A DNA stretch of 64,000 nucleotides from Escherichia coli (lineage in GTDB: Bacteria; Pseudomonadota; Gammaproteobacteria; Enterobacterales; Enterobacteriaceae): the NCBI RefSeq assembly GCF_016026235.1, contig NZ_CP065613.1. One strand, 5' to 3'. How positions within the stretch are numbered: position 1 is the first letter of the stretch; each line of letters begins with the position of its first letter. Made by a program: the position numbers and the translations under genes. The notes below the pieces were generated by a model. It had not been told where the DNA came from. It did no database searches and saw only the letters and a list, made by a program, of their open reading frames with translations. Of this stretch, positions 1,207 to 2,853 are shown one piece after another.

Positions 1207-2853
1207 ATGAATGGCGCACAGTGGGTGGTACATGCGTTGCGGGCACAGGGTGTGAACACCGTTTTCGGTTATCCGGGTGGCGCAATTATGCCGGTTTACG
1301 ATGCATTGTATGACGGCGGCGTGGAGCACTTGCTGTGCCGACATGAGCAGGGTGCGGCAATGGCGGCTATCGGTTATGCCCGTGCTACTGGCAAAACTGG
1401 CGTATGTATCGCCACGTCTGGTCCGGGCGCAACCAACCTGATAACCGGGCTTGCGGACGCACTGTTAGATTCCATCCCCGTTGTTGCCATCACCGGTCAA
1501 GTGTCCGCACCGTTTATCGGCACTGACGCATTTCAGGAAGTGGATGTCCTGGGATTGTCGTTAGCCTGTACCAAACACAGCTTCCTGGTGCAGTCGCTGG
1601 AAGAGTTGCCGCGCATCATGGCTGCAGCATTCGACGTTGCCAGCTCAGGTCGTCCTGGTCCGGTTCTGGTCGATATCCCAAAAGATATCCAGTTAGCCAG
1701 CGGCGATCTGGAACCGTGGTTCACCACCGTTGAAAACGAAGTGACTTTCCCCCATGCCGAAGTTGAGCAAGCGCGCCAGATGCTGGCAAAAGCGCAAAAA
1801 CCGATGCTGTACGTTGGTGGTGGCGTGGGTATGGCGCAGGCAGTTCCTGCTTTACGAGAATTTCTCGCTACCACAAAAATGCCTGCCACCTGCACGCTGA
1901 AAGGGCTGGGCGCAGTTGAAGCAGATTATCCGTACTATCTGGGCATGCTGGGAATGCACGGCACCAAAGCGGCGAACTTCGCGGTGCAGGAGTGCGACTT
2001 GCTGATCGCCGTGGGTGCACGTTTTGATGACCGGGTGACCGGCAAACTGAACACCTTCGCGCCACACGCCAGTGTTATCCATATGGATATCGACCCGGCA
2101 GAAATGAACAAGCTGCGTCAGGCACATGTGGCATTACAAGGTGATTTAAATGCTCTGTTACCAGCATTACAGCAGCCGTTAAATATCAATGACTGGCAGC
2201 AACACTGCGCGCAGCTGCGTGATGAACATTCCTGGCGTTACGACCATCCCGGTGACGCTATCTACGCGCCGTTGTTGTTAAAACAACTGTCGGATCGTAA
2301 ACCTGCGGATTGCGTCGTGACCACAGATGTGGGGCAGCACCAGATGTGGGCTGCGCAGCACATCGCCCACACTCGCCCGGAAAATTTCATCACCTCCAGC
2401 GGCTTAGGTACCATGGGTTTTGGTTTACCGGCGGCGGTTGGCGCACAAGTCGCGCGACCGAACGATACCGTTGTCTGTATCTCCGGTGACGGCTCTTTCA
2501 TGATGAATGTGCAAGAGCTGGGCACCGTAAAACGCAAGCAGTTACCGTTGAAAATCGTCTTACTCGATAACCAACGGTTAGGGATGGTTCGACAATGGCA
2601 GCAACTGTTTTTCCAGGAACGATATAGCGAAACCACCCTTACCGATAACCCCGATTTTCTCATGTTAGCCAGCGCCTTCGGCATCCCTGGCCAACACATC
2701 ACCCGTAAAGACCAAGTTGAAGCGGCACTCGACACCATGCTGAACAGTGATGGGCCATACCTGCTTCATGTCTCAATCGACGAACTTGAGAACGTCTGGC
2801 CGCTGGTGCCGCCTGGTGCCAGTAATTCAGAAATGTTGGAGAAATTATCATGA
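1207..2853 (+). CDS. ilvG: acetolactate synthase II large subunit (intact, 548 aa)
   Basis: Track ORF 548 aa; TPP-enzyme motifs (GDGSFMMN); uninterrupted frame, unlike the K-12 frameshifted allele. Confidence 0.95.

Follow-up and report, generated by a model that had tools for sequence, protein, structure and literature searches.

In the laboratory strain K-12 of Escherichia coli the ilvG gene is interrupted by a frameshift, and knowledge of this lesion, the valine sensitivity of the strain and the polarity on neighbouring genes goes back to the late 1970s and early 1980s. The frameshift and its consequences were reportedly described by Lawther et al. 1981 (cited in PMC8605374). The window analysed here, i.e. 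the whole stretch of 64,000 nucleotides of E. coli DNA, carries at positions 1207-2853 what a preliminary description took for an uninterrupted ilvG frame, and the question raised by this locus is whether such a frame represents a native gene encoding an active enzyme, a K-12 gene whose frame has been restored, an error of sequencing or assembly, or an open frame with a silent product. We consider the first of these readings, namely a native functional ilvG allele encoding the catalytic subunit of AHAS II, to be right with a probability of roughly 93%.

The frame runs on the plus strand from ATG to TGA and encodes 548 residues with a lone terminal stop, according to both the list of open reading frames and direct translation; no internal frameshift or stop was found on re-translation of 1207-2853, which confirms the uninterrupted 548-residue frame that had been described. 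Its product exhibits a full-length match to the NCBIfam equivalog NF006524 ('acetolactate synthase 2 catalytic subunit'), in which residues 1-547 correspond to profile positions 1-547 of 548 and the score of 1074.3 bits is to be compared with a cutoff of 738, which excludes a chance origin of this 1.6-kb frame. The three ThDP-enzyme Pfam domains are all found far above their cutoffs, in the order PF02776 (TPP_enzyme_N, residues 1-115), PF00205 (TPP_enzyme_M, 186-321) and PF02775 (TPP_enzyme_C, 374-522). The translated sequence also carries E47, which we take to be the catalytic glutamate, the substrate-specificity residue W464, and F109, M250, R276, V375 and M460, which are presumably of functional importance in AHAS II, and the ThDP/Mg motif GDG-x(24-27)-N is present at residues 427-456. 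The identity of the product as IlvI, i.e. the large subunit of AHAS III, was considered and rejected, as the AHAS III models score 489-537 bits where about 950-1084 would be required; the scores of other large-subunit NCBIfam models are below their cutoffs as well. At the nucleotide level the gene is identical (100%) to the one annotated as ilvG in E. coli FDAARGOS_943 (WP_001012598.1). The nearest solved structure is that of IlvB, the large subunit of E. coli AHAS I (6lpi), to which residues 2-544 were aligned with E = 1.4e-161. AHAS I (IlvB-IlvN) and AHAS III (IlvI-IlvH) have the enzyme fold and chemistry in common with IlvG; however, they are distinct isozymes, both of them inhibited by valine, whereas isozyme II is not (PMC8605374).

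The gene is located in a complete ilvL-ilvX-ilvG-ilvM-ilvE-ilvD-ilvA operon, with the leader upstream and ilvM directly downstream. The features of this region are as follows:

969-1067, plus strand: ilvL, the 32-residue leader peptide MTALLRVISLVVISVVVIIIPPCGAALGRGKA (NCBIfam equivalog NF007744, 81.9 bits, cutoff 59)
1088-1123, plus strand: the attenuator, an intrinsic terminator composed of a hairpin rich in G+C, whose core stem is formed by 1092-1097 and 1110-1115, and then U8 at 1116-1123
1154-1204, plus strand: ilvX, a small open reading frame of 16 residues that ends 2 nt 5' of the ilvG ATG and bears this name in the annotations of K-12 and FDAARGOS_943
1207-2853, plus strand: ilvG, the catalytic (large) subunit of AHAS II, 548 codons, intact
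2183-2186, plus strand: the ATAT tract in codons N326-I327 of ilvG, intact; K-12 is without one 2-bp unit, as found in the pairwise and the 10-sequence alignments
2850-3113, plus strand: ilvM, the 87-residue small (ACT-domain) subunit of AHAS II (NCBIfam equivalog NF008362, 133.9 bits, cutoff 68; Pfam ACT_5)
3133-4062, plus strand: ilvE, open reading frame
4127-5977, plus strand: ilvD, open reading frame
5980-7524, plus strand: ilvA, open reading frame

The control region of the operon closely resembles that of K-12. Codons for Leu, Ile or Val account for 15 of the 32 codons of ilvL, which exhibits no nucleotide difference from its K-12 counterpart, and a match to the Rfam family RF02744 ('Rev39 5'UTR') at 898-1187 (158.8 bits, above the gathering score) encloses ilvL and coincides with the leader/attenuator region. 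The RNA of 1060-1125 was predicted to fold with -29 kcal/mol (z = -4.57), and none of 200 shuffled sequences folded equally well; it was this folding, and not a simple terminator scan, that revealed the attenuator on the plus strand, since an internal mismatch in the stem caused the scan to miss it. The hairpin and the U-run are identical to those of K-12, the sole difference within 1068-1153 being found at position 1141, downstream of the U-run, and the nucleotide sequence of ilvX is identical as well; in region 700-968, upstream of ilvL, there are 9 differences. At the other end of ilvG, the ATG of ilvM overlaps the TGA of ilvG in the tetranucleotide ATGA at 2850-2853, a classic arrangement for translational coupling. 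The IlvM protein is identical to that of K-12, with one synonymous difference between the genes; general small-subunit models of NCBIfam fail to reach their cutoffs with it, and its accession, WP_000983255.1, was found in all nine sampled genomes (FDAARGOS_943 and the carriers of eight further natural ilvG alleles, described below). The coordinates of ilvE, ilvD and ilvA map one to one to the annotation of FDAARGOS_943.

The preliminary description had set this frame against a frameshifted K-12 allele, and the comparison agrees with that claim. MG1655 (NC_000913.3) annotates its ilvG (b4488, 3950560-3952204) as a pseudogene of 1645 bp, and the global alignment of the two genes comprises one 2-bp gap and 32 substitutions (98.06% identity, i.e. 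1.9% divergence). The K-12 gene is orthologous to that in the window and shares with it the start codon, ilvL, ilvX and the IlvM protein. The gap corresponds to gene columns 977-978, i.e. window positions 2183-2184 when left-aligned, its placement being ambiguous inside the ATAT tract at 2183-2186; thus, AAATATC at 2181-2187 of the window is represented in K-12 by AAATC. After the deletion the K-12 frame continues as L325-N326-Q327-TGA, which makes codon 328 a premature stop. All nine non-K-12 alleles read TTAAATATC, whereas K-12 reads TTAAATC and then AATGA. The window does not carry the K-12-type pseudogene allele, which is characterized by TTAAATCAATGA and the premature TGA at codon 328, but reads TTAAATATCAATGAC in frame. 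The position of the lesion, which had been given as codon ~290, has to be corrected: the alignment places it at codons 326-328, about 36 codons away, in good agreement with the published location of the premature TGA at nt 982-984 (PMC8605374). According to the E. coli W genome paper, ilvG of K-12 was disrupted by 'two separate base pair insertions' (PMC3032704), a description that is unsupported by the alignment with the nine natural alleles, in which K-12 exhibits a single 2-bp deletion. Since one unit was lost from a short tandem repeat, the data suggest replication slippage. In the K-12 pseudogene residues 327-548 are lost, including the whole C-terminal ThDP-binding domain (TPP_enzyme_C, 374-522). 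When the K-12 frame is repaired in silico, the two proteins differ at just four positions (A140E, S146C, T222A and P494H, from the window to K-12).

A 2-bp unit in a short repeat is the kind of site at which some sequencing technologies are prone to indel errors, and it might be argued that the strain is truly frameshifted and that its open frame results from an indel miscalled in the ATAT tract during sequencing or assembly. We give this explanation hardly any credence. The tract is not a homopolymer, and all nine natural alleles are in the same register across it; the same open allele of 1647 bp is present in independent complete assemblies, including that of FDAARGOS_943, in which it is identical, and the 80-mer that spans the junction site in the window was found as an exact match in 1,404 complete genomes.

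To establish how common the intact gene is in the species, complete E. coli genomes were searched, and a match over at least 80% of ilvG was found in 5,423 out of 5,426. On the other hand, a 78-mer across the K-12 junction matched exactly in 340 of these 5,426 genomes, and the best 60 of the 340 were all K-12 laboratory derivatives (MG1655, DH5alpha, C600, J53, DH1, HMS174 etc.). Another eight natural alleles, taken at even steps along the ranking by identity (98.5% to 95.2%), are each 1647 bp long; all of them carry the annotation of an intact ilvG, and the gene for the same IlvM protein comes next. Taken together, the nine natural alleles (95-100% identity) are all 1647 bp in length and free of internal stops, and the only indel in the alignment of ten sequences is the gap in K-12. 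The allele in the window differs from the other natural ones by 25-79 substitutions, most of which are synonymous. According to the method of Nei and Gojobori, the nine natural alleles exhibit a mean dS of 0.128 and a mean dN of 0.0055 (dN/dS 0.043), with a dN/dS of 0.087 for codons 329-548, the part that K-12 leaves untranslated in frame; the gene is under strong purifying selection over its whole length. The literature agrees with this picture, as ilvG is stated to be intact in strains W, B and Crooks and to make them tolerant of valine (PMC3446290, PMC3032704), and the genes of B/REL606, W, Crooks and FDAARGOS_943 are the same gene with the same length of 548 residues and the same position in the operon, with nothing of substance different from the window. 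The intact frame is the ancestral and near-universal state in E. coli, and the lesion in K-12 is derived and specific to its lineage. As a separate observation, the genome of E. coli NCCP12480 (NZ_CP068680.1) matches ilvG only over the first 58%, where a 'thiamine pyrophosphate-binding protein' and ilvA are annotated; a natural deletion from the middle of ilvG to ilvA is suggested by this arrangement and would represent an independent loss of the gene.

The intact frame had also been proposed as a strain marker that sets the window apart from the K-12 lineage. The conclusion stands, on account of the 32 substitutions and the differences in gene content, while the open frame as its sole proof does not, because evolved lines of MG1655 readily regain an open ilvG. 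They do so by losing one base of the premature TGA, either the T or the G (nt 982 or 983), and thereby become valine-resistant (PMC8605374). Such revertants have an open gene and the valine-resistant phenotype, yet they retain the K-12 haplotype with a second-site deletion of 1 bp. An origin of the window from a K-12 strain with restored ilvG, be it a spontaneous Val-resistant revertant or an engineered repair, is thus not a far-fetched idea in itself, all the more so as gene columns 811-1196 are the same as in K-12 save for the 2 bp, but the details of the locus refute it so clearly that we consider its probability negligible. A -1 revertant reconstructed from the K-12 sequence would encode a protein of 547 residues that reads PLNQDW, whereas IlvG of the window has 548 residues and reads PLNINDW, with the native N326-I327-N328. 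Divergence at 32 positions of ilvG (98.06% identity) is not what a revertant would exhibit, and the neighbourhood leads to the same result: FDAARGOS_943 (NZ_CP065615.1), a non-K-12 strain, matches positions 1-25000 of the window with 100% identity, and the next-best genomes over these 25 kb, at 99.2% and below, are natural isolates, e.g. an O169:H41 strain and an isolate from guinea fowl. Gene content is unlike that of K-12 as well, with a mere remnant of aslA, an open yifN, replaced yigF and yigG, and IS4 in yigE. Near-identity to MG1655 across the locus together with the same gene content, the hallmark of the K-12 lineage, is thus absent from the window. A non-K-12 origin is indicated by the N-I-N sequence, the length of 548 residues, the 1.9% divergence and the differences in gene content; the intact state of ilvG per se is a weak marker, which excludes only roughly 6% of complete genomes, namely the K-12 derivatives.

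With the native origin of the allele thus supported, the question of function can be addressed. The claim that the gene encodes, with ilvM, a functional valine-insensitive AHAS II is supported by the equivalog match, the conserved residues, the identical IlvM, the unchanged leader and attenuator, and purifying selection. The alternative is that ilvG is open but its product is inactive or unexpressed, by reason of a missense or a promoter change, so that no valine resistance results. It could appeal to codon 140 (GCA, window 1624-1626), which encodes Ala in the window, Glu in nine other E. coli alleles and Asp in IlvB, i.e. a non-conservative substitution at an otherwise acidic position, and to the nine positions upstream of ilvL at which the window departs from K-12. 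However, the exact 60-mer around the A140 codon is present in 451 complete genomes of many natural lineages, O104:H4 and O121:H19 among them, and A140 is a common natural polymorphism; E140A as a sign of a crippled enzyme was rejected on these grounds. Besides, a dN/dS of 0.04 shows that selection maintains the gene, every catalytic and cofactor residue checked is present, the score of 1074 bits exceeds the equivalog cutoff (738) by a wide margin, and the leader, the attenuator and IlvM are unchanged with respect to K-12. We therefore regard an inactive or silent ilvG as improbable, albeit less so than an assembly artefact or a K-12 revertant. The preferred reading of a native and functional allele also agrees with the behaviour of published strains: MG1655 lines in which ilvG has been restored to an open frame are able to grow at 1 mg/ml valine, unlike their parent (PMC8605374), and B strains, in which ilvG is intact, exhibit higher expression of ilvGMEDA and growth on valine dipeptides (PMC3446290). 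Orthology and these strains give good support to the prediction that the source strain has an active, valine-insensitive enzyme.

The following scheme would account for the role of the gene. IlvG is predicted to act as the ThDP- and FAD-dependent catalytic subunit and to be partnered by the small subunit IlvM, which would be translated from the overlapping ATGA junction. The IlvG-IlvM enzyme would condense pyruvate with pyruvate or 2-ketobutyrate in the first common step of the synthesis of valine and isoleucine, and, as AHAS II is free of the feedback inhibition by valine that affects isozymes I and III, it should allow growth despite the presence of valine. Expression would be governed by the ilvL leader and the attenuator in response to the supply of Ile, Leu and Val. 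Ribosomes are expected to traverse all of ilvG, and the polarity of the K-12 type on ilvM, ilvE, ilvD and ilvA should be absent. The K-12 frameshift is indeed polar on the downstream genes according to Parekh & Hatfield 1997, as cited in PMC8605374, and relief of this polarity is expected from restoration of the K-12 frame (PMC8605374). The K-12 allele is derived, by the lineage-specific 2-bp deletion in ATAT, from the state that is common to nearly all E. coli and retained in the window.

In practical terms, the window represents a natural non-K-12 E. coli with the complete ilvLXGMEDA operon, and in metabolic modelling or strain engineering its source strain is best regarded as tolerant of valine and as lacking the polarity by which the ilvG allele of K-12 complicates the physiology of that strain. 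The gene itself is a wild-type ilvG of the usual kind in an equally usual ilvLXGMEDA operon, which is already known, and it touches no open question, because the K-12 frameshift is textbook knowledge and the intact allele is the default in the species; indeed, genome papers regularly remark that strains other than K-12 have an intact ilvG (PMC3446290, PMC3032704). What is new, and only mildly so, concerns the haplotype, in which columns 811-1196 are identical to K-12 while the flanks differ, a pattern that suggests a mosaic. Within this 386-bp segment (window 2017-2402) the 2-bp deletion is the sole difference, and the 32 substitutions are distributed outside it, with 23 on its 5' side, 8 on its 3' side and the remaining one right at the 3' border, in gene column 1197. 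Such a distribution might have arisen by recombination, with the central 386 bp keeping the haplotype of the K-12 ancestor before the deletion and the flanks being of a type that we label B1-like. The inference is weakened, however, because the 3' half of ilvG is less diverse in all alleles, and we regard the mosaic as a tentative proposal that has somewhat less than an even chance of being right. If true, it would shed light on how the ilvG haplotype of K-12 arose in nature and on recombination in the ilv operon, a minor point that would bring no new biology of the gene.

Several other loci of the window deserve mention. The yifN locus at 10620-11111 (minus strand) contains an open frame for a toxin of the PemK/MazF type (Pfam PemK_toxin, E = 9e-11), annotated as an intact type II toxin in FDAARGOS_943 and as a pseudogene (b3777) in K-12. 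A TrxA 5'-UTR thermometer was identified at 16298-16397, upstream of trxA (Rfam RF02773, 78.8 bits, above the gathering score). The arylsulfatase gene aslA, which is 1656 bp long in K-12, is represented only by a 5' remnant of ~138 bp at ~34908-35045 (minus strand), which adjoins aslB, and the GlmZ sRNA is kept nearby at 35470-35676 (Rfam RF00083, 218 bits). About half of the complete genomes (2,549 of 5,426) match 80% or more of positions 50001-64000, which makes this region a variable one in E. coli. At ~52978-55560, between corA and rarD, the yigF and yigG genes of K-12 have been replaced by genes for a DUF943 membrane protein (52978-53457, minus strand) and a protein of the DUF3289/YPO3983 family (53454-54308, minus strand), accompanied by a fragment of corA, to which the annotation of FDAARGOS_943 gives the status of a pseudogene, and by a short open reading frame for a hypothetical protein. 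A complete copy of IS4 (1426 bp, 49843-51268) with terminal inverted repeats of 18-20 bp and a transposase gene at 49909-51255 (plus strand; Nterm_IS4 and DDE_Tnp_1 domains) splits yigE into fragments at 49402-49833 and 51266-51604 (minus strand). FDAARGOS_943, which is otherwise 99.9-100% identical to the window, is without the IS4 copy in yigE, so that the window derives from a close relative rather than from that assembly itself. The insertion is flanked by a perfect 12-bp target-site duplication, CACCTTCTGCTG.
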